Notes under the pieces: model-generated
Told to the model about the DNA's origin: nothing
Seen by the model: the letters and a program-made list of their open reading frames with translations, nothing else
Databases searched by the model: none
Made by a program: the position numbers and the translations under genes
Source of the DNA: Synechocystis sp. PCC 6803 substr. PCC-P
Lineage (GTDB): Bacteria > Cyanobacteriota > Cyanobacteriia > Cyanobacteriales > Microcystaceae
NCBI RefSeq assembly: GCF_000284455.1
Contig: NC_017039.1
Coordinates: 450,001 to 482,000, forward strand
DNA: 32,000 nt
Direction: 5' to 3'
Shown: positions 7,077 through 30,700 of the stretch, in pieces
How positions within the stretch are numbered: position 1 is the stretch's first letter
How the letters are laid out: each line of letters starts with the position of its first letter

Positions 7077-8399
7077 ATGGATTTAACAAATTGGTGGCAA
7101 GGGGCAACCCAGTGGTTTGGCAGATCTTCACAAAAATCCTTGGAGCAAGCCTTCCGGTCTGCCCTAAAAATAAAAGAAATTGAAGATCAATACTTCCAAG
7201 GCAAAAAAATAGGGCCAGAAAATTGTGATTATAGTGCCGACACTGTCACCTATTTTGCCAACCAAATTCAGCGGCATCTGAGGAAAATAGAGCAGGAAAT
7301 TTACCACCTCAACAGCGACCAAGAATTCGTCAAAATTCTGAGCCTAGATCCAGCAGTTAAACAGGATCCACAAACGGAATATGTTCTCAATCAATTGCAA
7401 TTCATTGATGACATATTGCAACGCTATGACGGTGAACTGCCCCAGGTTAGTCCCCCCAAGCAAATTGCCAATGGGGGCGTTCTGGATTTACCCGCCATAA
7501 CTGCTAATAAACAACGGCAAATCAACAAAAAGCGCCGGGACGGTTTTCAATATATTCGGCGGGAAGATACCCAACAAAAAGTAGATACTGCCACCCAAAA
7601 ATCTGGCGTTTTGCCCCGTTCCTTCTTGCGTACCATCGACCGTCTGAAGCGGGAAATGGACCCCCAGTCCAGTGACACTGAGCAAAAGGTGCTCAAACAA
7701 TATCGCAATTCTCGCTATAAAACTGCCCTCTCAATTAAGTTTGTTTTAACCTTAATTATTGTGCCCCTGCTGGCCCATCAATTGACTAAAACATTTTTTC
7801 TTTTGCCTTCGGTGGAATCATTTTTTGAGCGTAATAGTGAGGTTGTTTTTATTAACCAGAGTATGGAGACAGAAGCCTATGAGGAATTGAGTCATTTTGA
7901 AGAATCTCTGCGTTTTCGAGAATTGTTAGGTTTTGGCGAAAAACTTTCCCCCGAAGCTAAGGAAGAAAAACTGGCGGAGAAAGCCAAAGAAATTTCCGAA
8001 AGTTACCGTCGGGTTAGCACCAATGCGATCGCCAATATTTTTGCTGATATTTTTTCCCTGGTGGCCTTTTCACTTGTTTTGGTCAATAGTCAACGGGAAA
8101 TTGAAGTTTTAAAAGAATTTATTGACGAAATTGTCTATGGCTTGAGTGACTCGGCTAAGGCATTCTTGATTATTCTCTTTACCGATATGTTTGTTGGTTT
8201 TCACTCTCCCCACGGTTGGGAAGTAATTTTGGCTAGTATCGCCCGTCATTTTGGTTTGCCGGAAAATCAAGATTTTAACTTTCTTTTTATCGCAACTTTC
8301 CCGGTAATTTTAGATACGGTCTTTAAATATTGGATCTTCCGTTATCTGAATAGTATTTCTCCCTCTGCCGTGGCTACCTACCGCAATATGAATGAGTAA
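7077..8399 (+). CDS. pxcA: Proton-extrusion / CemA-family inner-membrane protein
   Basis: 440-aa ORF. The C-terminal third shows CemA-family hydrophobic blocks (FLIILFTDMFVGFHSPHGWE, FIATFPVILDTVFKYWIFRYLN). Length and sequence match my recollection of Synechocystis PxcA (slr1596). Confidence 0.88.
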   Translation: MDLTNWWQGATQWFGRSSQKSLEQAFRSALKIKEIEDQYFQGKKIGPENCDYSADTVTYFANQIQRHLRKIEQEIYHLNSDQEFVKILSLDPAVKQDPQTEYVLNQLQFIDDILQRYDGELPQVSPPKQIANGGVLDLPAITANKQRQINKKRRDGFQYIRREDTQQKVDTATQKSGVLPRSFLRTIDRLKREMDPQSSDTEQKVLKQYRNSRYKTALSIKFVLTLIIVPLLAHQLTKTFFLLPSVESFFERNSEVVFINQSMETEAYEELSHFEESLRFRELLGFGEKLSPEAKEEKLAEKAKEISESYRRVSTNAIANIFADIFSLVAFSLVLVNSQREIEVLKEFIDEIVYGLSDSAKAFLIILFTDMFVGFHSPHGWEVILASIARHFGLPENQDFNFLFIATFPVILDTVFKYWIFRYLNSISPSAVATYRNMNE

Positions 8400-12904: not shown

Positions 12905-13780
12905 TTGGACGTGACCGTCAAACCGGATTGGCTCCGAGTCAAAGCGCCCCAATGGCAGAGGGTGGGCAGTGTTAAGGATATTCTGCGAGATTTACAATTA
13001 AATACCGTCTGTGAAGAAGCTTCCTGTCCCAATATTGGCGAGTGTTTTCAGGCCGGGACGGCTACTTTTTTGATTATGGGTCCTGCTTGCACCAGGGCTT
13101 GCCCCTATTGTGATATTGATTTTGAGAAAAAGCCTCAACCCTTAGACTCCACAGAGCCGGAAAGATTGGCGATCGCCGTGAAAAGGCTCAATCTTAAGCA
13201 TGTGGTGATTACCGCAGTCAACCGGGATGATTTACCCGATGGAGGAGCCTCCCAGTTTGTTAGTTGCATAGAGGCTATCCGCAAAATTTCTCCAGGCACC
13301 ACCATTGAGGTTTTGATTCCAGATTTGTGCGGCAATTGGCAAGCCTTAGCGGCGCTGTTGGAAGCTGCCCCAGAGGTTTTGAATCACAATATGGAAACAG
13401 TGCCCAGGCTTTATAAACGGGTGCGGCCCCAGGCGGATTATGATCAATCCCTAGAATTATTCAACCAGGCGAAACGGATTCTGCCCAAGGTTTACACTAA
13501 GTCCGGCATTATGGTGGGGCTGGGGGAAACAGATGCGGAAGTAAGACAGGTGATGGAAGATCTACGCCGGGTGGATTGCGATATTTTGACTATTGGCCAG
13601 TATCTACAACCTAGCCAAAAACATTTGGGAGTCAAGGAATTTGTCACCCCGGAACAGTTCGACGTTTGGCGAATTTATGGTGAATCCATTGGCTTTTTAC
13701 AAGTGGTATCCTCCCCTTTAACCCGCAGTTCCTACCATGCGGAACAGGTGCAGGCTTTGATGACCCGTTTCCCCCGTTAA
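12905..13780 (+). CDS. lipA: Lipoyl synthase (radical SAM)
   Basis: Both cysteine clusters are present: [12 protein letters not shown] (auxiliary) and CTRACPYC (radical-SAM CxxxCxxC). The start is a TTG at 12905 or a GTG at 12911. Confidence 0.9.
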
Positions 13781-18768: not shown

Positions 18769-19102
18769 GGTGTTTAAGGATGATTGACAAAGTAACTGTA
18801 ACTGGATTTGAGATCCGGAAATAACAGTTCCTTCGTCATTACTCTGTTTAATTTGAAACAAATCCAAATACTCAAGGATTCATTCTCCTTCATCAAATTT
18901 GCGATCAAAATCCTTAGACTTCATGTATTTTAATACAGGGCTATACATATAGTGATTGGCTACTAGTACTGTCCATTGTCAGTTTTACCTAAAGTAGTTT
19001 GCTCAGGAACAGTTCTAAATCATCGAGTACTTCGTTCTTTTGGATATACTCATTGCCTTCAGTTTGATGATCCAGATAAAAACTTAACGCATCAAACACT
19101 TT

Positions 19103-21181: not shown

Positions 21182-23032
21182 GTGAGCAAAAATAATAAAA
21201 AATGGCGTAACGCGGGCCTATATGCCTTGTTGTTAATTGTCGTTTTAGCGTTGGCATCGGCCTTTTTCGACCGACCGACCCAAACTAGGGAAACCCTCAG
21301 CTACAGCGATTTTGTCAATCGGGTAGAAGCCAATCAGATCGAACGGGTCAACCTCAGTGCCGACCGCACCCAAGCCCAAGTACCCAATCCCAGCGGTGGT
21401 CCTCCCTACTTAGTCAATCTGCCCAACGACCCCGACTTGATCAATATTCTCACCCAACACAACGTGGATATTGCTGTCCAACCCCAGAGCGACGAAGGTT
21501 TCTGGTTCCGCATCGCCAGCACCCTATTTTTGCCCATCTTGCTCTTGGTGGGAATTTTTTTCCTCTTCCGTCGGGCCCAGAGTGGCCCTGGTTCCCAAGC
21601 CATGAACTTTGGTAAATCCAAAGCACGGGTGCAAATGGAACCCCAAACCCAAGTTACCTTCGGGGACGTGGCCGGTATTGAGCAAGCCAAACTAGAACTC
21701 ACCGAAGTGGTGGACTTCCTGAAAAATGCAGACCGCTTCACCGAATTGGGAGCCAAAATTCCCAAGGGTGTTTTGTTGGTAGGCCCCCCCGGAACCGGTA
21801 AAACCCTGTTGGCCAAAGCCGTGGCTGGGGAAGCGGGTGTACCGTTCTTTTCCATCTCCGGTTCGGAATTTGTGGAAATGTTTGTCGGTGTTGGTGCTTC
21901 TCGGGTACGGGATTTGTTTGAGCAGGCTAAAGCCAATGCTCCCTGTATCGTCTTCATCGATGAAATTGATGCCGTTGGTCGTCAACGGGGCGCTGGCCTT
22001 GGTGGTGGTAATGATGAGCGGGAACAGACCCTCAACCAGTTGCTAACGGAAATGGACGGTTTTGAAGGCAACACCGGCATTATTATCGTCGCCGCCACTA
22101 ACCGTCCCGATGTATTGGATTCTGCCTTGATGCGTCCCGGTCGTTTCGATCGCCAAGTGGTAGTAGACCGTCCTGATTATGCTGGCCGTCGAGAAATCCT
22201 CAATGTCCATGCCCGGGGTAAAACCCTTTCCCAGGATGTGGATTTGGATAAAATTGCCCGTCGTACCCCTGGATTTACCGGTGCTGACCTGTCCAACCTG
22301 TTGAACGAAGCCGCTATTTTGGCTGCCCGTCGCAACTTGACCGAAATTTCCATGGACGAAGTCAACGACGCCATTGACCGGGTGTTGGCTGGTCCTGAGA
22401 AGAAAAATCGGGTGATGAGCGAAAAACGCAAAACCCTAGTGGCTTACCATGAAGCTGGCCACGCCTTGGTGGGTGCTTTGATGCCTGATTATGATCCAGT
22501 ACAAAAAATTAGCATTATTCCCCGCGGCCGGGCCGGTGGTTTAACCTGGTTCACCCCCAGTGAAGACCGTATGGAATCCGGTTTATACTCCCGTTCCTAT
22601 CTGCAAAATCAGATGGCCGTTGCCCTGGGAGGCCGTATTGCTGAGGAAATTATTTTCGGCGAAGAGGAAGTCACCACCGGTGCTTCCAACGACCTCCAAC
22701 AGGTAGCCCGGGTCGCCCGCCAAATGGTAACCCGTTTCGGCATGAGCGATCGCCTGGGCCCGGTAGCTTTGGGTCGTCAGGGTGGTGGGGTATTCCTTGG
22801 TCGGGACATTGCCTCTGACCGGGACTTTTCCGATGAAACCGCTGCGGCGATCGATGAGGAAGTAAGTCAATTGGTAGACCAAGCCTATCAACGGGCCAAA
22901 CAGGTCTTGGTGGAAAACCGTGGCATTTTAGATCAACTGGCAGAAATCTTGGTAGAAAAGGAAACTGTTGATTCTGAAGAGCTGCAAACTCTCCTGGCTA
23001 ACAACAATGCCAAATTGGCACTTCTAGTTTAA
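21182..23032 (+). CDS. ftsH: ATP-dependent zinc metalloprotease FtsH
   Basis: Walker A GPPGTGKT, Walker B IVFIDEID, the SRH region, and the zinc motif HEAGHA are all present. A GTG at 21182 gives 616 aa, as I recall for slr1604 (FtsH3). The track ORF starts at a TTG at 21167. Confidence 0.95.
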
Positions 23033-23079
23033 GAATCCAAGCATTGGAATTCCTAGAGTTAAAACTCTGATCAAAACAT

Positions 23080-23114
23080 TATCCCCTTCCTGATTTACAG
23101 GGGGGGATTTTTTT
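23080..23114 (+). terminator. Intrinsic terminator after ftsH
   Basis: ATCCCC (23080-23085) pairs with GGGGAT (23103-23108), followed by a run of 7 T (23108-23114). Confidence 0.65.
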
Positions 23115-23126
23115 GTGGGCCATTAA

Positions 23127-23854
23127 GAGCGTGTTTGAAAAGTCGGCATAATTGGGAAAAATGGTGAAGAATACAGAATTTTCACCGTAATGATGCTGAG
23201 AGAATTTTACAGCAGCGACATCAGTGATAGCCAGTAGCAATTGGTAGAATCCAATCTCCCCCAAGCAAAAAGTGGGGGAAGAAAACGGAAAACTAATCTG
23301 AGGGAAGTGCTTAATGCCATTTTTTACATGCTCAGAGCGGGTTGTGCTTGACGACTTCTGCCCCATGATTTTCCCAAATGGCGAAGAATGGTTATTTCCG
23401 ACAGTGGTAGGAAGACGGTACCTGGAAAAAATTGAATCACATCCTCAGAAAGAAGATTCGACTTAAGGTCGGAAGAAATGCCAACCCTAGTGCTGGTTGT
23501 TTGGACTCACAGTCAGTGAAAAAGGCTGGCGCTGGACAAGAAAGTGGTTATGACGGTGGAAAAAAGGTCAATGGTCGTAAACGCACAATCCTCGTGGATA
23601 CCATGGGATTACTTCTCGATGTTGTGGTTCACAGCGCTCATCGCTCAGGCCACCAAGGTCTTACTCTACTCGGTACTTGGTTTGCTCCTCTATGGCAGTG
23701 CCTGCAATTGATATGGACTGACAGCACTTTTGGCAGTAAGAATTTTACTGCCTGGGTTAATTAATGAGACCTTTGGCTAGAATTTGGAAATCGTCAGCAA
23801 AAAGGATGGACAAAAGGGTTTTGAGGCTTTGCCTCGAACTTTTCAAACATATTC
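23127..23854 (+). mobile_element. Decayed IS5-family (IS427/IS1031-like) insertion sequence with an inactivated transposase
   Basis: Terminal inverted repeats are GAGCGTGTTTGAAAAGT (23127-23143) and ACTTTTCAAACATATTC (23838-23854), matching at 14 of 17 positions. The internal reading frames spell DDE_Tnp_1-type motifs ([73 protein letters not shown]). These are broken by TAG at 23235, TGA at 23349, a further TAG, at least one frameshift, and a C-terminal deletion. Confidence 0.8.
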
Positions 23855-23903
23855 TTAGTGCGCCAGTTAGTTGAAAGCAGCAAATCAAATTTTACCGAAT
23901 AGT

Positions 23904-24306
23904 TTATTCTGCCCAGTTTTCCAAGAATAAATTGTTAATGCGTGAAAATTCTCGAAGATTATTGGTGACAAGCGTTACTCCCAGACTTAACGCATGGGCT
24001 GCAATCAGCATATCCATAGCCCCAATGACAAGACCTCTACTTTCTAGATTACTTCTAATGTTGCCATAGGCGATCGCCGCTTCCTGAATTAAATTCCACG
24101 ATTTCTAGCGGCATCAAGAATTGCATTAAGGCATCACGATTTTTCGATTGTTGTTGACTTTTACTGACACCATATTCTAATTCCGCCACGGTAATGGATG
24201 AAATACCAATGTCTGATATCTCCAGGGTTTGAAATTTTGCCAAGACTTTAAACGGTTTCTTCTTAATGAGATAAATGCAAATATTCGTATCTAGTAAATA
24301 CTTCAT
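23904..24306 (-). pseudogene. vapC: PIN-domain toxin VapC, disrupted by a +1 frameshift
   Basis: The N-terminal frame reads MKYLLDTNICIYLIKKKP...LEIVEFNS and then stops at 24055. A shifted frame continues EAAIAYGNIRSNLESRGLVIGAMDMLIAAHALSLGVTLVTNNLREFSRINNLFLENWAE*. The total length is 403 nt (3n+1). The extra base lies in the CC run at 24073-24074. Confidence 0.8.
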
Positions 24307-24534
24307 TTAGAACTCTTCTCGTATATCTAAGGGAGGCTGTTCCCTAGTTTTCATAAAATCATCTGAAAATTGATCTAAGCTTTCAATTAAGGATTGCCAA
24401 GGGTTATTTTTAGCAATCAAAATAATTGTACTTCCAATTTTTTTAATGTAAACTTCGCTTCCGGCTATCGTAAAGTTTTCTGGTAAAATAACGATTTGAT
24501 GGGTGCCATCGGTGCTAATTTGAGCTGTGTTCAT
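24307..24534 (-). CDS. vapB: AbrB/SpoVT-type antitoxin VapB
   Basis: The 75-aa product from the ATG at 24534 (MNTAQISTDGTHQIVILPENF...) has a swapped-hairpin AbrB-like N-terminus. Its stop codon directly abuts the vapC ATG (TAAATG). Confidence 0.75.
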   Translation of the reverse strand: MNTAQISTDGTHQIVILPENFTIAGSEVYIKKIGSTIILIAKNNPWQSLIESLDQFSDDFMKTREQPPLDIREEF

Positions 24535-24612
24535 GACGTTGCCTCTAGGATAAGTAAGGGGGAAGAGTTGGCGATCGCCGAAAGATCGACTTTTCTTTTT
24601 TGACAAGTTAAA

Positions 24613-24894
24613 TTAATAGACTTCATCATGGGAACCTAAATTAAGTAATAAAATTGCCTCTTCCTTGTCTTCTGGGTTGTTTACAAATTCAAATAGCAGA
24701 CGATAATTATAGTCGATAGAGCATGACCAAACGTTAGCTAGTTCTCCTTTGAGTTTATGGGTGCGTAGGCTAGGGTGAAAAGGATCTGTTGCCAACTGAT
24801 GTAATATTTGTTCAATCATCGGTCTCAGATTAGGATTTTTGGGAATCAGGCGCTTGAATGAACGTAATGATTTTGGAGACCAGGCAATTTTCAT
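24613..24894 (-). CDS. RelE/YafQ-family mRNA-interferase toxin
   Basis: 93-aa ORF with the HKLKGELANVWSCSIDYNYRLLFEF...LLLNLGSHDEVY pattern typical of RelE/YafQ toxins. Its ATG overlaps the upstream antitoxin stop (ATGA). Confidence 0.75.
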   Translation of the reverse strand: MKIAWSPKSLRSFKRLIPKNPNLRPMIEQILHQLATDPFHPSLRTHKLKGELANVWSCSIDYNYRLLFEFVNNPEDKEEAILLLNLGSHDEVY

Positions 24895-25109
24895 TCTTGA
24901 TCGAGCGCTTCCAAAAATTGATTTACTGAACCAAACTGAACATCACCGTTAGCAAATTCTTGGCGAATTTCTTTGATTTCCTCGGCTAATTTTTTTCTTC
25001 TTTTTTCTTGCAATCGTTTTTGAATAATATCAAGTAAGATTTCTTGATCATCTAGGGGTAGATTTTCAACGGATTCAATGGCTTTTTGAAATTCTGATGT
25101 TTTTAGCAT
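24891..25109 (-). CDS. Cognate antitoxin of the RelE/YafQ-like toxin (small acidic/basic helical protein)
   Basis: 72-aa ORF with a 4-nt overlap onto the toxin gene. It has a charged helical sequence. The call is based on position and size. Confidence 0.6.
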   Translation of the reverse strand: MLKTSEFQKAIESVENLPLDDQEILLDIIQKRLQEKRRKKLAEEIKEIRQEFANGDVQFGSVNQFLEALDQE

Positions 25110-25211
25110 TGTAGTTTGACGGAATTTATTTAAGGTTTTAACTACGTGAAAGAGGATTGGCGATCGCCAAAAAATCAGCTATGGGGCACTCCGGTTAGTT
25201 GGAAAGAGTAT

Positions 25212-25547
25212 TTACATGTTTTCTAACAGAGAGTCGAATAGATAGGCTAATTCTGGTAGTTTGTTCTCAATTACATCCCAGATTATATCCAGATCAAGTT
25301 GATCATATTCGTGAACAATAACATCTCGCATTCCTGCCATTTCCCGCCAAGGTATTGCTGGATGTTGACTGCGGAAGTCTGGAGAAATTCGCTTTGTTGC
25401 TTCGCCAATAATCGTAATTTGATAGAGAATGGCTGATAATTTCTCATCGTTAATTTCTAGTTGTACTTTATCAATTTCATTCGTATAGCGCAAAATGCGT
25501 CTAATGGCATTGGCAATATCAATAAGGGATTCTTGATTACGTTGCAT
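25212..25547 (-). CDS. hepT: HepT (DUF86, HEPN-domain) RNase toxin
   Basis: 111-aa ORF with the HEPN R-x4-H motif in MRDVIVHEY. It overlaps the upstream mntA gene by 11 nt. Confidence 0.8.
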   Translation of the reverse strand: MQRNQESLIDIANAIRRILRYTNEIDKVQLEINDEKLSAILYQITIIGEATKRISPDFRSQHPAIPWREMAGMRDVIVHEYDQLDLDIIWDVIENKLPELAYLFDSLLENM

Positions 25548-25845
25548 AGATAATTTGGGCAGATTCTAAAATGTTTTTACGTCTGAGCCAGTTTTCACTC
25601 CGATTGATTGCACTTTTGACAATTAAATCGACAGGACGTTGAAATATTTCTTGCAGTTCATCTCGCATCTGTATGGTTTCTGTTAAACCACGTTTTGCAG
25701 TAGGCGCAAATTCAATGAGTATGTCAATGTCGCTGTCTGAATGAAAGTTTGGACGTAGGATGGAACCAAATAAAGCAAATTCTTTGACCTGCCATTTGTG
25801 ACAAAATTGACGAATTTGCTCCATCGGTAAATTTGTTGTTTCCAT
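25537..25845 (-). CDS. mntA: MntA minimal nucleotidyltransferase antitoxin
   Basis: 102-aa ORF with the GS...DxD nucleotidyltransferase signature (LFGSILRPNFHSDSDIDILIEF). Confidence 0.8.
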   Translation of the reverse strand: METTNLPMEQIRQFCHKWQVKEFALFGSILRPNFHSDSDIDILIEFAPTAKRGLTETIQMRDELQEIFQRPVDLIVKSAINRSENWLRRKNILESAQIIYAT

Positions 25846-25974
25846 AATCCTGACGATTTCTGTTTGAGCTATTTAAGTTTGTTTGTGTGTTTCAATGGAT
25901 CTCGAAGGAAAGGAAAATTGTATAAGCTTTTCCTATTTAGCTAGAGTGACAATCAAAGAGCATTTTTTAATTTT

Positions 25975-27501
25975 CTATCTTTTGAAAATGGCGAATCGCT
26001 CGGCTAGTGTTTTATCTCGGCAAGCTCTCGGTTTAGTAAATAGCTTAAAATCTGTATCTTTAAATAATTCCTGCTTACTTGTCACAATAGATTTGTAAAA
26101 TACATTTTCTTTGATTTTTTCGTTCTTAATAATACTGTCAAAATCTTCATTTTGAAAGCCAAGAGATATATAACGACAGAAAAATACCAACCAAACGATC
26201 TCAAAAACGGATGACATTTTCGATGCTCTGTCTAATTCATCCTTAATTGTTTCCCTAAGAAAATCCTTAAGTCCTTGATCATTTCTTTTATTTTCAATAT
26301 ATAAACGCTCAATAACTGATAAAACATGACATAGGATTTTTGTTGATTCTCGTTTTAGTAAAAACAAAAGAGAAATTGTCTTTCTGATTTCTTTTCCACG
26401 ATTTTGACTTGAATAACTAACCTTTAAATTATGTCTTTTGTCAAATAACTCTGCAATAAATTTTTCAATAATGCTAGTACCAGGGTGCTTTCGATGAATA
26501 TCTAATGCAATTAGCAAGGTATGTTCAAATTTTCTAAAAGAAATATATTTCTTTCTTCGCAATACATGAGGAAAATATGCTCGATTATGTTCTCGATAAA
26601 GCCCATCGGGAAGATTGAGAAACGATGTTTTACTTTCGTTCAATGAGAGATTATATTGAGAGAGTTGATGGGAAAGAATGTCAAGCAATTTTTTTGCATT
26701 TTCTTTCGAATTACATAATATTCTGTAATCATCTTTAAAGCGGACAGCTGCATATTCAATATGCTTGGATTCTTGGGAAAACTTACGATCAATATCTGCT
26801 AAGATAGTCTCAGCAATTAGATCAGAGAGTGCCGAACCGATGGGAATACCATTTGTTCGTCCATCATTTGAATATTGAAATAATCTATCAATTTTATTTC
26901 CAAAAAGTCTAAATTCTTTATCTTCAAGTGCTTCTTCTCTTCCATGAATGGCCCATCCAATACCATGAGTATAGATTGACGGATAGAAATTTGTAATATC
27001 GGTTTTGGCTAAAATATTAAATTTTTGACCATCTAGTATAAGGTCTTCCTCTGCCATTTCAAGCCATTCATAAATCATTCTACCTGCACGAAGAGGGCTT
27101 AAGTCTTCAAAATCTTTTTTTGAAACTGGAATAGGAAAACTGTAGGCGGCAACCTTATTTTCTGAGTGGAAAATATGGCTTAATATATTATCCCAGTTTT
27201 GATGTAAATAAAAAATAATGTCGTGATAATTCCAAGGATGCTGAACACTAAAATTTCTGTATGTTAAAGTACTTTTGGGAAATGAAACAAAAGCCACTTG
27301 ACGCTTTTTTAAATCATTAATGTTGATATTGTATGGAGTGTCTTGAAGTTTAATCTCTTTTGATACAGTAAAACTCGGTGGCAGGATATTTTCTTCGGGG
27401 AAATAACCAACATTCAGCAACCATTTTGCTATTTTATCCTTATTTACTTTCCGCACAAGAGATTCTGTTTCTCGGAAATGCTCATAGGTTGCAAACTTCA
27501 T
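25975..27501 (-). CDS. Stand-alone reverse transcriptase with a helical C-terminal extension (UG/Abi / DRT-like)
   Basis: The 508-aa ORF carries RT motifs in order: FPKSTLTYRNFSVQHP (1-2), AKTDITNFYPSI (A), NGIPIGSALSDLIAETIL (B), VRFKDDYRILC (C; the DD codons are at 26728-26733) and LSLNESKT (D). A roughly 200-aa Lys/Glu/Leu-rich tail follows. The gene is AT-rich and contains no HIP1 site. Confidence 0.85.
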   Translation of the reverse strand: MKFATYEHFRETESLVRKVNKDKIAKWLLNVGYFPEENILPPSFTVSKEIKLQDTPYNININDLKKRQVAFVSFPKSTLTYRNFSVQHPWNYHDIIFYLHQNWDNILSHIFHSENKVAAYSFPIPVSKKDFEDLSPLRAGRMIYEWLEMAEEDLILDGQKFNILAKTDITNFYPSIYTHGIGWAIHGREEALEDKEFRLFGNKIDRLFQYSNDGRTNGIPIGSALSDLIAETILADIDRKFSQESKHIEYAAVRFKDDYRILCNSKENAKKLLDILSHQLSQYNLSLNESKTSFLNLPDGLYREHNRAYFPHVLRRKKYISFRKFEHTLLIALDIHRKHPGTSIIEKFIAELFDKRHNLKVSYSSQNRGKEIRKTISLLFLLKRESTKILCHVLSVIERLYIENKRNDQGLKDFLRETIKDELDRASKMSSVFEIVWLVFFCRYISLGFQNEDFDSIIKNEKIKENVFYKSIVTSKQELFKDTDFKLFTKPRACRDKTLAERFAIFKR

Positions 27502-27769
27502 TAGCTATTATAAGTAATGACTTAAATATAGATTTTATCGCTGATTCGATTAGGGATGAGATACTCCTAAGTTCTGGAATCTTTATTTCTTAAGCTTCGT
27601 GTATCCTAAGAGTGTCCCATATCCATCCTAATTTGCTATAAACATATTTTCAACCCTTGTTCATTAAGTCGGCAAAAGATAATCTGTCCCCCTATTCTAC
27701 TGAAAAAGTGATTTTTTGACGTTGGGCTAGACTTCAGCCAGTTTAGCCCAGTTCCATCATAAATTTATC

Positions 27770-30700
27770 CTAACTCCCCCCAATGCGAGCCACATCCTTG
27801 GCATTCTCCTCAAACGCCGCATTCAAAGCATCATCGCCGCTCAAACCCGCTTCTAGCGCTTTTTTGATGGCTTGCAATACCCGTTTATAATCCCGAGGCA
27901 TTACCTTAACGAATTTGGGAATACTCGCTTCCCAATCTGCTAAAACAGCTTTACCTTTGGCGCTGTCGGTGTAGTTAACATGGTTCTGGATTAACTCTTT
28001 GAGATCCTTAATTTCTTCGGGATCTTCTAGTTTTTCTAAACCCACCATGGCGGAATTGCAACGGGTGGCAAAATCCCCAGTTTCATCGAAGATGTAGGCC
28101 ACACCACCACTCATGCCCGCCGCAAAGTTTCGTCCTGTTTGACCAAGAACCACGACTTTACCGCCGGTCATATATTCGCAACCATGATCGCCCACCGCTT
28201 CCACCACCGTATTGACGCCGGAATTGCGGACACAGAACCGTTCCCCCACCATGCCGGAAATATAAACTTCCCCAGCAGTGGCGCCATAGAGACAAACATT
28301 ACCGGCAATGATGTTTTCCGAAGCGATAAAACTAGAGCCTTTGGGGGGATAGACAATAATTTTGCCGCCGCTCAATCCTTTACCCAGGTAATCGTTGGCA
28401 TCCCCTTCCAGTTCCAGGGTCATGCCCTTGGGAATAAAGGCCCCAAAACTTTGCCCCGCACTGCCTTGGAAATGGAGATGGACAGTATCTTCCGGTAAAC
28501 CTTCCCAATGGCGTTTGGTGATTTCGTTGCCGACAATGGTGCCCACCACCCGGTTGATATTGGTAATGGGTAAAGTGGCGGTGACTTTTTCCCCTTTGGC
28601 GATCGCCGGTTGGCAGAGATCCAATAACTGGGTGATGTCGAGGGAATGCTGAAGACCATGATCCTGGGGAATTTGGCAATAACGACCCACATCGTCCCCT
28701 ACTTCCGGCTGATGGAGAATAGTGGAAAGATCAATGCCTTTTGCTTTCCAGTGAGCTACGGCCTTTTTCGGTTCCAGAATATCGGTGCGACCAACCATTT
28801 CGTTAATGGTGCGGAAACCCAGTTGGGCCATCACTTCCCGCAGTTCCGTGGCAATAAAGGTCATAAAGTTGACCGCATGGGCCGGATCGCCGGTGAATTT
28901 GGCCCGCAGTTCCGGATTTTGGGTGGCAATGCCCACGGGACAGGTATTTAAATGACAGGCCCGCATCATAATGCACCCCAGGGATACCAGCGGCGCAGTC
29001 GAAAACCCAAACTCTTCCGCCCCCAGTAAAGCGGCGATAGCCACGTCCCGGCCAGTTTTCATTTGCCCATCGGTTTCCACCACAATACGGGAACGGAGAT
29101 TGTTCAACACCAAGGTTTGATGGGTTTCCGCTAGGCCCAATTCCCAGGGCAACCCAGCATGTTTAATGGAAGTTTGGGGTGATGCTCCGGTTCCTCCGTC
29201 ATAGCCAGACACTAGCACCACATCGGCATGGGCCTTAGCCACCCCAGCGGCGATCGTGCCCACCCCGACTTCCGACACCAGTTTGACGTTAATGCGGGCT
29301 TCCCGGTTAGCATTTTTCAGGTCGTGGATTAATTCCGCCAAATCTTCAATGGAATAAATGTCATGGTGGGGCGGGGGAGAAATTAAACCTACGCCGGGAG
29401 TGGAATGACGCACTTTGGCGATCCAGGGATAAACTTTTTTGCCGGGTAGCTGACCCCCTTCCCCAGGTTTTGCACCCTGGGCCATTTTGATTTGAATTTC
29501 CTTTGCTTGGGAGAGGTACAAACTGGTCACTCCAAAGCGCCCGGAAGCCACCTGTTTAATGGCACTGTTTTTGGAATCTCCCTGATCGTTAGTCCAGGTA
29601 AACCGTTCCGGATCTTCCCCCCCTTCCCCAGTGTTGGACTTACCACCAATGCGATTCATGGCGATCGCCAGGGATTCATGGGCTTCTTTGGAGATGGAGC
29701 CGTAGCTCATGGCCCCGGTTTTAAAGCGTTTCATGATCGCTTCAATGGGTTCCACTTCTTCGAGGGGAATAGATTCTCGGTCTTGGAAATCCAGTAAGCC
29801 CCGCAGGGTAAAGAACTTTTGGTTTTGTTCATTAACCAGGGCGGCGTACTGTTTATAAAGCTCGTAATTACCTTCCCGCACCGCCCGTTGTAATAAATGA
29901 ATGGTTTGGGGACTAAATAAATGCTCTTCCCCATCCTTCCGCCATTGGTACTCACCCCCTACATCAAGGGTATGCAAATCACCAGGGCGAGGAGCAAAGG
30001 CATGTTGATGGCGCAAAATAGCTTCCTGGGCAATTACACCTAAATCAGAACCTTGGATGCGGGAAGAAGTGCGGCAGAAATATTCATCAATCACACTCTG
30101 ATTTAAGCCCACCGCTTCAAAAATTTGGGCACCTCGGTAACTTTGGATGGTGGAAATGCCGATTTTAGAAGCAACTTTAATTACCCCTTTGGTGGCGGCT
30201 TTGATATAGTTTTTGCAAGCGGTTTTGTGATCCACATTAACCAGTAAACCTTCGGCGATCATACCGTCCAAAGTTTCAAAAGCTAAGTAAGGATTAATGG
30301 CTCCACAACCGTAACCGAGTAGGACAGCAAAATGATGCACTTCCCTCGGTTCCCCAGATTCCAATACTAGACCCACCTTGGTACGGGAACCGTTGCGAAT
30401 CAAATGGTGATGTAACCCCGACACCGCCAGCAGAGCAGGGATAGCCGCTTTTTCCGCACTAACTTGGCGATCGCTGAGAATGATTAGGTTAGCTCCTTGG
30501 GAAATGGCCTGGTCAGCTTCCGTAAACAAATTATCTAACGCAGTTTTAAGGCCCGCTTCCCCTTGGTTCGGATCAAACAAAATGTCTAGGGTGACGGATT
30601 TAAATTCATCGTCGTCTAACGCTTTGAGCTTAGCTAGATCTTCGTTGGTTAAAATGGGAGTTTTCAACTCAATTAAGCGGCAACTTTCTGGCCGAGGATC

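Follow-up and report, generated by a model that had tools for sequence, protein, structure and literature searches.

A probable recombination-tolerant hotspot with toxin-antitoxin cassettes and a UG14 reverse transcriptase in the ftsH3-gltB gap of Synechocystis sp. PCC 6803

How did 4.6 kb of AT-rich DNA, carrying several toxin-antitoxin (TA) modules and a reverse transcriptase (RT) gene, come to lie in Synechocystis sp. PCC 6803 between the convergent genes ftsH3 and gltB, and what kind of enzyme is the RT? We addressed this question in a stretch of 32,000 nucleotides (nt) of the chromosome (NC_017039.1, positions 450,001 to 482,000 of the forward strand), called the window below and used for all coordinates unless noted otherwise. 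The genes of the island are all on the minus strand, in the order vapC pseudogene, vapB, a RelE/StbE-family toxin gene with the gene of its 72-amino acid (aa) antitoxin, hepT, mntA, and the RT gene sll1503. The island is already known, as Kopfmann et al. (2016) described exactly these genes as a "possible mobilome island" (PMC4963859), and every gene in it belongs to a described family. What goes beyond the 2016 description is the assignment of sll1503 to the RT group UG14, the exchange of cargo with a sister strain in two layers of different age, and the identification of the toxin Ssl2923 as a truncated VapC. Our best explanation, in which we place considerable confidence, is that the ftsH3-gltB gap is a recombination-tolerant hotspot that holds independent, co-oriented accessory cassettes, with an older insertion sequence (IS) of the IS5 family and vapBC joined later by the RelE pair, MntA-HepT and the UG14 RT.

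Cargo exchange at the ftsH3-gltB gap

The window was compared with the sister chromosome CP019225.1 (3.58 Mb), which encodes an identical FtsH3 protein and whose flanks of the gap are 93-98% identical to the window at the DNA level. Within the gap, the two strains have in common the IS relic up to position 23567 (its left part, about 450 bp), the last 68 nt of vapC, and vapB (95% DNA identity) together with the first 79 nt of vapC. The sister strain lacks the RT gene, the RelE pair and the mntA-hepT pair of PCC 6803, and its specific cargo consists of a DUF6887 gene, an mntA-hepT pair, an MmeI-like methyltransferase/target-recognition gene (broken by a gap in the assembly), hicAB, and a DUF2283 gene with a DUF4258-like partner. 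Its mntA-hepT pair, which has the IS relic on one side and the remnant of vapC on the other, was acquired independently, because the two proteins are only 46% and 44% identical to those of the PCC 6803 pair. The junctions at which homology between the strains is lost and regained fall exactly at the vapB start codon (24534/24535) and, next to gltB, 5 nt past its stop codon (27764/27765).

These differences resolve two layers. The older one consists of the IS5-family element and vapBC, which are decaying differently in each strain, vapC having suffered an internal deletion in the sister strain and a frameshift in PCC 6803. The younger one consists of strain-specific cassettes, which in PCC 6803 are the RelE pair, mntA-hepT and the RT gene.

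The composition of the island is clearly foreign. Its GC content is 0.363 (positions 23117-27764), relative to 0.472 in the rest of the window, and the GC content at third codon positions is 0.20-0.33 in the TA genes and 0.24 in the RT gene, compared to 0.53-0.58 in ftsH3, gltB and slr1603. Different cargo between the same flanks and atypical composition, in the two haplotypes sampled, thus support the ftsH3-gltB gap as a true exchange hotspot. Since even so close a relative does not keep the gene set, and since the composition is not host-like, the locus does not have the character of an ancestral one.

A preliminary description of the sequence had proposed that accessory modules were gained and lost at a tolerant gap, and the different cargo of the sister strain and the foreign composition agree with that proposal. 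It had also read the region as a defense island. Of that reading, the hotspot with varying cargo is supported; the RT can be specified as a UG14 enzyme of class 1 UG/Abi and the modules as independent cassettes, and an anti-phage function is predicted by homology.

No integrase, tRNA gene or attachment site is present at the island in PCC 6803. We found no evidence of tRNA-targeted integration, a tRNA gene being absent both from the window and from the sister-strain locus. An exact-protein look-up of VapB returned PCC 6803-type contigs only. The island is also present in record AP012495.1; this is probably a strain of Bacillus subtilis into which a Synechocystis genome was cloned, and does not count as a separate occurrence in nature.

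Elsewhere in the window, another TA spot that varies between the strains was seen. In PCC 6803 it comprises about 330 bp (18771-19100) with a dip in GC content to 0.38; at this place the sister strain has a DUF433/DUF5615 pair between lpxC and a DUF1400 gene (positions 7107-7919 of the retrieved CP019225.1 stretch).

The reverse transcriptase encoded by sll1503

Residues 5-508 of the 508-aa product of sll1503 aligned to positions 4-492 of the 493 in the PADLOC profile RT_UG14, an end-to-end match (665 bits, E = 1.4e-200), followed by the groups Drt6, AbiP2 and Drt4 at 190-235 bits, with Drt6 second best at 235. The scores against the NCBIfam models for Drt4, Drt3b and retron RTs were all far under the cut-offs (166 vs 450 bits for Drt4, 43 vs 235 bits for the retron model), and the Pfam RVT_1 match was 46.8 bits. 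In a profile search of the PDB, the best match was Abi-P2 (1.8e-34), followed by DRT4/UG15 (about 1e-29) and then by Drt3b and AbiK. An AlphaFold2 model of the protein (pLDDT 85, pTM 0.84) predicted an all-helical region at residues ~304-507, where pLDDT is mostly above 85. When this model was searched with Foldseek, about 480 columns superposed on DRT4/UG15 (TM score 0.67-0.71), Abi-P2, DRT6 and AbiK, whereas retron, group II intron, DGR, DRT2 and DRT9 enzymes aligned to it on the core only (TM score ~0.3).

The protein thus combines an end-to-end profile match, the catalytic motifs, a C-terminal helical repeat (alphaRep/HEAT-like) domain, and the lack of a partner gene or noncoding RNA (ncRNA). 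By profile and by modeled fold, sll1503 is a UG14 enzyme of class 1 UG/Abi, and its existing label, "retron-type reverse transcriptase" in the JGI annotation, is wrong, because the PADLOC and NCBIfam scores, the PDB matches and the fold all point to class 1 UG/Abi.

More than 1,100 homologues were found; the best 120 have identities of 51-81% and are spread over cyanobacteria, gamma-proteobacteria, Bacteroidota, Planctomycetota and other groups. In an alignment with 21 relatives (52-81% identity), some 110 positions do not vary, including D168 of motif A and D257/D258 of motif C (FKDD). As these invariant positions, with the catalytic aspartates, are kept, the PCC 6803 copy looks functional.

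What such an enzyme might do is suggested by its relatives. Mestre et al. (2022) defined class 1 UG/Abi and predicted a defensive role for UG14 from neighborhood enrichment, UG14 itself being untested there (PMC9226505). DRT4, DRT6, Abi-P2 and AbiK are protein-primed, template-independent DNA polymerases (overview of the class in PMC13213688), and in DRT4 a phage DNA-binding protein shields the single-stranded DNA (ssDNA) product from a host exonuclease, so that its build-up kills the cell (PMC12783706). By analogy with DRT4/UG15, DRT6, Abi-P2 and AbiK, the sll1503 enzyme would act as an oligomer, prime synthesis on a tyrosine of its own and produce untemplated ssDNA, which would turn toxic and cause abortive infection once a phage factor stabilized it. 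Both the enzymology, which probably applies to sll1503, and the anti-phage role are predicted from the homology in sequence and fold with DRT4, DRT6, Abi-P2 and AbiK. The invariant Tyr144, which lies in a conserved segment (GRMIYEW), is the obvious candidate for a priming residue. As a well-studied organism that takes up DNA by natural transformation, PCC 6803 would be a convenient native host for a first functional test of UG14.

Decayed and intact modules of the island

The features of the island and its borders are listed in Table 1. Their arrangement had been outlined correctly in the preliminary description: an IS5-type relic does begin directly after the ftsH3 terminator, the four minus-strand modules (vapBC with a frameshifted vapC, the RelE pair, mntA-hepT and the RT gene) are all present, the island does end at the gltB stop codon, and the coordinates given hold to within a few bases.

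Table 1. Features of the ftsH3-gltB gap and its flanks, in window coordinates
Feature	Coordinates	Strand	Remarks
ftsH3 (slr1604)	21182-23032	+	Left flanking gene; open reading frame (ORF) ends at 23032
ftsH3 intrinsic terminator	23084-23116	+	9-bp stem and 5-nt loop (stem-loop 23084-23106), then T-run until about 23116; CCCTTCCTGATTTACAGGGGGGG ATTTTTTTGT
Degenerate IS5-family insertion sequence	23116-23865	+	Both terminal inverted repeats kept; includes annotated fragment ssr2699
vapC pseudogene	23904-24306	-	PIN-domain, tRNA-fMet-endonuclease type; frameshifted; N-terminal part is ssl2923
vapB antitoxin (ssl2922)	24307-24534	-	75 aa, intact; adjoins vapC start codon
HIP1-centered 21-nt motif	24567-24587	-	GATCTTTCGGCGATCGCCAAC; 34-53 nt upstream of vapB
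RelE/StbE-family toxin (ssl2921)	24613-24894	-	93 aa, intact; TIGR02385 35.2 bits (cut-off 27.9)
Antitoxin (ssl2920)	24891-25109	-	72 aa; stop overlaps toxin start by 4 nt (ATGA)
Second copy of HIP1-centered motif	25156-25176	-	GATTTTTTGGCGATCGCCAAT; 48-67 nt upstream of ssl2920
hepT (sll1505)	25212-25547	-	Predicted HEPN RNase toxin of type VII TA, 111 aa; Pfam HepT-like 97.5 bits; Rx4H motif (RDVIVH)
mntA (sll1504)	25537-25845	-	Predicted minimal nucleotidyltransferase antitoxin, 102 aa; Pfam NTP_transf_2 71.6 bits; PADLOC PDC-S09
UG14 RT (sll1503)	25975-27501	-	Stand-alone class 1 UG/Abi RT by profile and fold, 508 aa; RT core and C-terminal all-helical domain (~304-507)
RT 5' leader	27502-27760	-	259 nt, from published transcription start site to RT start codon
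Right island junction	27764-27772	-	Sister-strain homology back at 27765, 5 nt from gltB stop codon
gltB (sll1502)	27770-27772 (stop codon)	-	Right flanking gene

The IS relic is 750 bp long, and a 28-nt inverted repeat (23116-23143 and 23838-23865) marks its ends. It gave partial matches to the DDE_Tnp_1 and IS5 NCBIfam profiles, and in its three-frame translation, stops and frameshifts disrupt stretches of IS5-type transposase that are distributed over two frames. Its identity to an IS5-family element annotated on plasmid pSYSM is 81%, and it differs from that element by 4-nt indels and by an internal deletion of about 135 bp just inside the right repeat. With its transposase frame destroyed, the element is no longer a functional IS of this family but a relic. 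In a relative that is about 90% identical at the DNA level (Logan SRR30404809), a tRNA-Gly(CCC) gene follows the ftsH terminator at the place where PCC 6803 has the IS relic; it occupies positions 7836-7906 of the retrieved contig, which stops shortly afterwards, so that adjacency to gltB is not visible.

The vapBC module retains an intact antitoxin gene and a toxin gene that is split. The gene ssl2923 (24055-24306) encodes the N-terminal 83 aa of VapC; the C-terminal half is read in the +1 frame, starting at 24083 and reaching a stop at 23904. Against the VapC profile, the 83-aa part covers positions 1-72 and the out-of-frame part positions 74-130, and the two parts, when joined conceptually, give a protein of 133 aa that matches the whole profile (1-130 of 130) at 191 bits, above the cut-off of 140. 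The identical frameshift, with the same 83-aa ORF, is carried by several independent PCC 6803 assemblies, and it is therefore not a sequencing error of one record. As for the antitoxin, the NCBIfam VapB models match residues 25-98 of a longer ORF, and public assemblies call vapB as 75 aa.

Of the four acidic residues in the active site of a PIN domain, two normally come from the C-terminal half. Ssl2923, which ends before that half, should accordingly lack part of the PIN active site, as judged from its sequence. Kopfmann et al. (2016) reported that Ssl2923 inhibits the growth of E. coli, that Ssl2922 relieves this inhibition, and that Ssl2923 had RNase activity in initial tests (PMC4963859). 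The toxin used in those experiments is thus the N-terminal half of a frameshifted VapC, which bears on the reading of the published toxicity data.

The two remaining TA modules are intact. The toxin Ssl2921 scored above its family threshold and its small antitoxin gene lies upstream and overlaps it, as in type II TA systems of the RelE/ParE superfamily; weak Pfam matches to YafQ, ParE and HigB-like families were also obtained for the toxin, and profile searches returned no family match for the antitoxin Ssl2920. A 123-aa antitoxin-toxin "fusion" in Logan gene calls was rejected as a gene-calling artefact in which in-frame stops were read through, the underlying DNA being identical to the window. 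The next module has the motifs, gene order, overlap and Pfam matches of a type VII MntA-HepT system, with mntA carrying the GSX10DXD motif and overlapping hepT by 11 nt. We predict that the RelE-family toxin would cleave mRNA as an mRNA interferase, and that HepT would be a HEPN RNase held in check through nucleotidylylation by MntA. The TA pairs would stabilize the island and may add abortive-infection capacity.

Weighing the explanations against known systems

In the explanation that we favor, the gap would gather independent accessory cassettes, and these would be transcribed in a larger unit that starts near the gltB stop codon. The alternative that survives best, although we regard it as unlikely, holds that the island is selfish mobilome debris, with the TA pairs as addiction modules and the RT as a retroelement remnant, neither serving host defense. 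The adjoining dead IS and frameshifted toxin gene are consistent with it, no phage phenotype is known for the island, and Kopfmann et al. not only use the term "mobilome island" but call the RT "mobile" (PMC4963859). The RT itself argues otherwise. It is full length with all family-invariant residues kept, the members of its clade that have been tested are defense enzymes, and it has no intron RNA, endonuclease domain or maturase domain. Its closest relative (81% aa identity) is found at an unrelated cyanobacterial locus, in the company of small TA-like genes, namely DUF6887, DUF4926, Phd/YefM antitoxin and XisH/XisI genes, and DNA homology to this relative stops at the ORF borders, running from about 25 nt upstream of the RT ATG to the RT stop codon only. 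Moreover, UG14 genes elsewhere adjoin diverse defense genes. We sampled 80 UG14 loci from species-representative genomes and examined 77; a comparison of 133 immediate UG14 neighbors with PADLOC returned many defense families of 2-4 members each and no recurrent partner, among them PbeA, type IV and type I restriction enzymes, mad2, PD-Lambda-3 and PDC candidates. Subunits of type I restriction-modification systems and, in some cyanobacteria, a large helicase-like gene were the neighbors that recurred, at five loci at most.

The transcription of the island gives rise to a second alternative. In Table 2 of Kopfmann et al. (2016), the unit of sll1504 starts at 477658 on the reverse strand, 1915 nt upstream of sll1504, and the other two TA pairs lack a separate start site and belong to a larger transcription unit (PMC4963859). 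We placed the sll1504 start site at window position 27760 (a BA000022.2 coordinate equals the window coordinate plus 449898). From there it is 259 nt to the RT start, which lies downstream, and the gltB stop codon is 10 nt away on the other side. The hexamer TAGGAT (27772-27767), a candidate -10-like element, overlaps the gltB stop codon at the position expected of a -10 box, and reads TAGGTT in the sister strain. In addition, a 21-nt motif centered on the cyanobacterial HIP1 palindrome, GATYTTTYGGCGATCGCCAAY, has only two copies in the window, both in the island, although the window contains 32 plain HIP1 sites overall; none would be expected by chance, and the 29 other HIP1 sites of the window do not match the motif even when two mismatches are allowed. 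A third copy precedes the sister strain's mntA, which is not orthologous to that of PCC 6803 (13229-13249 of the retrieved CP019225.1 stretch), so that in the two strains three non-homologous TA cassettes have a HIP1-centered motif of 21-28 nt, TAGCTGATYTTTYGGCGATCGCCAAYC, on their upstream side. The motif may be a promoter element common to these cassettes, or else a scar left at cassette junctions. A role as a general TA-upstream element was not supported, as a search of a plasmid database yielded only chance-level matches and one 24-nt match on a PCC 6714 plasmid, and the TA loci of Synechocystis plasmids do not generally have the motif.

Because all cassettes in both strains are co-oriented, the sole reported start site and the -10-like hexamer lie at the gltB stop codon, and the motif precedes three cassettes, one could propose that the gap is a promoter-equipped landing pad in which the motif would serve as a cassette recombination or junction site, in the manner of an integron without an integrase. 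A second possibility of the same kind is that the co-transcribed UG14 RT would be coupled to the TA toxins. We regard these proposals as speculative and improbable.

We consider it more improbable still that the RT, as a sensor, forms one multi-gene system with HepT, RelE or VapC as effectors, comparable to a retron with its effector or to UG22 with a HEPN protein. The co-orientation of the genes would fit such a system, as would the single start upstream of the RT reported for one larger unit (PMC4963859) and the association of class 1 UG/Abi RTs of other groups with HEPN proteins (PMC9226505). The UG14 neighborhoods do not. When the island proteins were compared with all ORFs of the 77 loci by phmmer, an MntA-like neighbor was found at one locus, and relatives of HepT, RelE, VapB and VapC at none; all-against-all clustering of the ORFs within 3 kb of UG14 gave no family present at more than five loci. 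On these results, a coupling of the RT to MntA-HepT in particular was rejected. The 81% relative of the RT likewise has different small neighbors, and the sister strain has a TA array without the RT.

A partner in the form of an RNA was sought in the leader of the RT. An Rfam scan of positions 22900-27900 matched no family, the folding of the leader was unremarkable (z = -1.5), its sequence is not conserved in the 81% relative beyond the ~25 nt upstream of the ATG, and its coding strand contains no ORF of at least 20 aa except one that overlaps gltB. A ncRNA in this leader of about 260 nt was rejected on the Rfam result, the folding score and the absence of conservation. With no recurrent partner, an unconserved leader and homology confined to the ORF, the RT is thus a self-contained single-gene cassette without a conserved partner gene or ncRNA. 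The proposal that sll1503 is a retron RT making msDNA from an msr/msd RNA in this upstream region, for which the names given by JGI and Kopfmann et al. (PMC4963859) and the long untranslated leader might speak, is effectively refuted by these leader results, by the retron and UG14 profile scores (43 and 665 bits) and by the restriction of the structural match with retron RTs to the core.

Several points weigh against the explanation of the gap as a hotspot of independent cassettes with a defensive RT. One alternative haplotype of the gap was recovered, and two exact-pattern scans of metagenome contigs, with the 3' ends of gltB and ftsH, came back empty. A search of the viral contigs of IMG/VR returned no UG14 relatives and thus no evidence that phages carry UG14, and the RT has no mobility gene linked to it. 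The toxicity reported for the 83-aa Ssl2923 in E. coli sits awkwardly with vapC as a dead gene. Apart from Mestre et al. (2022), a full-text search found no RT-related paper that mentions UG14, and no experiment showing anti-phage activity of UG14. Finally, the priming Tyr125 of DRT4 aligns to UG14 position 147, which is a Leu in PCC 6803, and not to the invariant Tyr144 three residues upstream.

As a locus, the ftsH3-gltB gap resembles the defense and TA hotspots between core genes of other bacteria, in that its cargo varies between conserved flanks. It differs from them in having no integrase, tRNA or attachment site in PCC 6803, and in junctions that coincide with gene borders. Among its modules, the repaired PCC 6803 VapC matches the tRNA-fMet-endonuclease type of VapBC (Shigella MvpAT and Leptospira VapBC; NF047863, NF047862) from end to end and is directly preceded by vapB, whereas the toxin gene as it stands is frameshifted (+1) after codon 74 and the sister-strain copy has its internal deletion. 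The MntA-HepT type VII TA system has been characterized in Shewanella oneidensis. The PCC 6803 pair shares with it the order mntA then hepT, the overlapping stop and start, the GSX10DXD and Rx4H motifs and the strong Pfam matches, but with 42 and 45 bits it does not reach the NCBIfam equivalog cut-offs of 60, and its activity is a predicted one.

The closest characterized systems are those of the RT. Abi-P2 is prophage-borne and AbiK plasmid-borne. Both (PDB 7r08 and 7r06; PMC9508834) have the same architecture of an RT core with a helical C-terminal domain, and characterized members carry out protein-primed, untemplated DNA synthesis; they belong to different UG/Abi groups, and sll1503, unlike them, is chromosomal, with a dead IS 2 kb away as its only linked mobile element. 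DRT4 (UG15) and DRT6 (UG12) share the predicted fold of sll1503 over about 480 residues (TM score 0.6-0.71), the domain order, the single-gene logic and the catalytic xxDD; yet sll1503 is only 20-21% identical to them, falls below the Drt4 equivalog cut-off (166 vs 450 bits), and does not conserve the priming Tyr125 of DRT4 at the aligned position. With the UG14 group as defined by Mestre et al. (2022; PMC9226505), sll1503 has in common the full-length profile match, the RT core with a C-terminal helical-repeat domain, the single-gene organization and the varied defense neighborhoods. It departs from this group, whose defense role is a predicted one, in nothing structural, and is set apart by its location in a cyanobacterial TA array.

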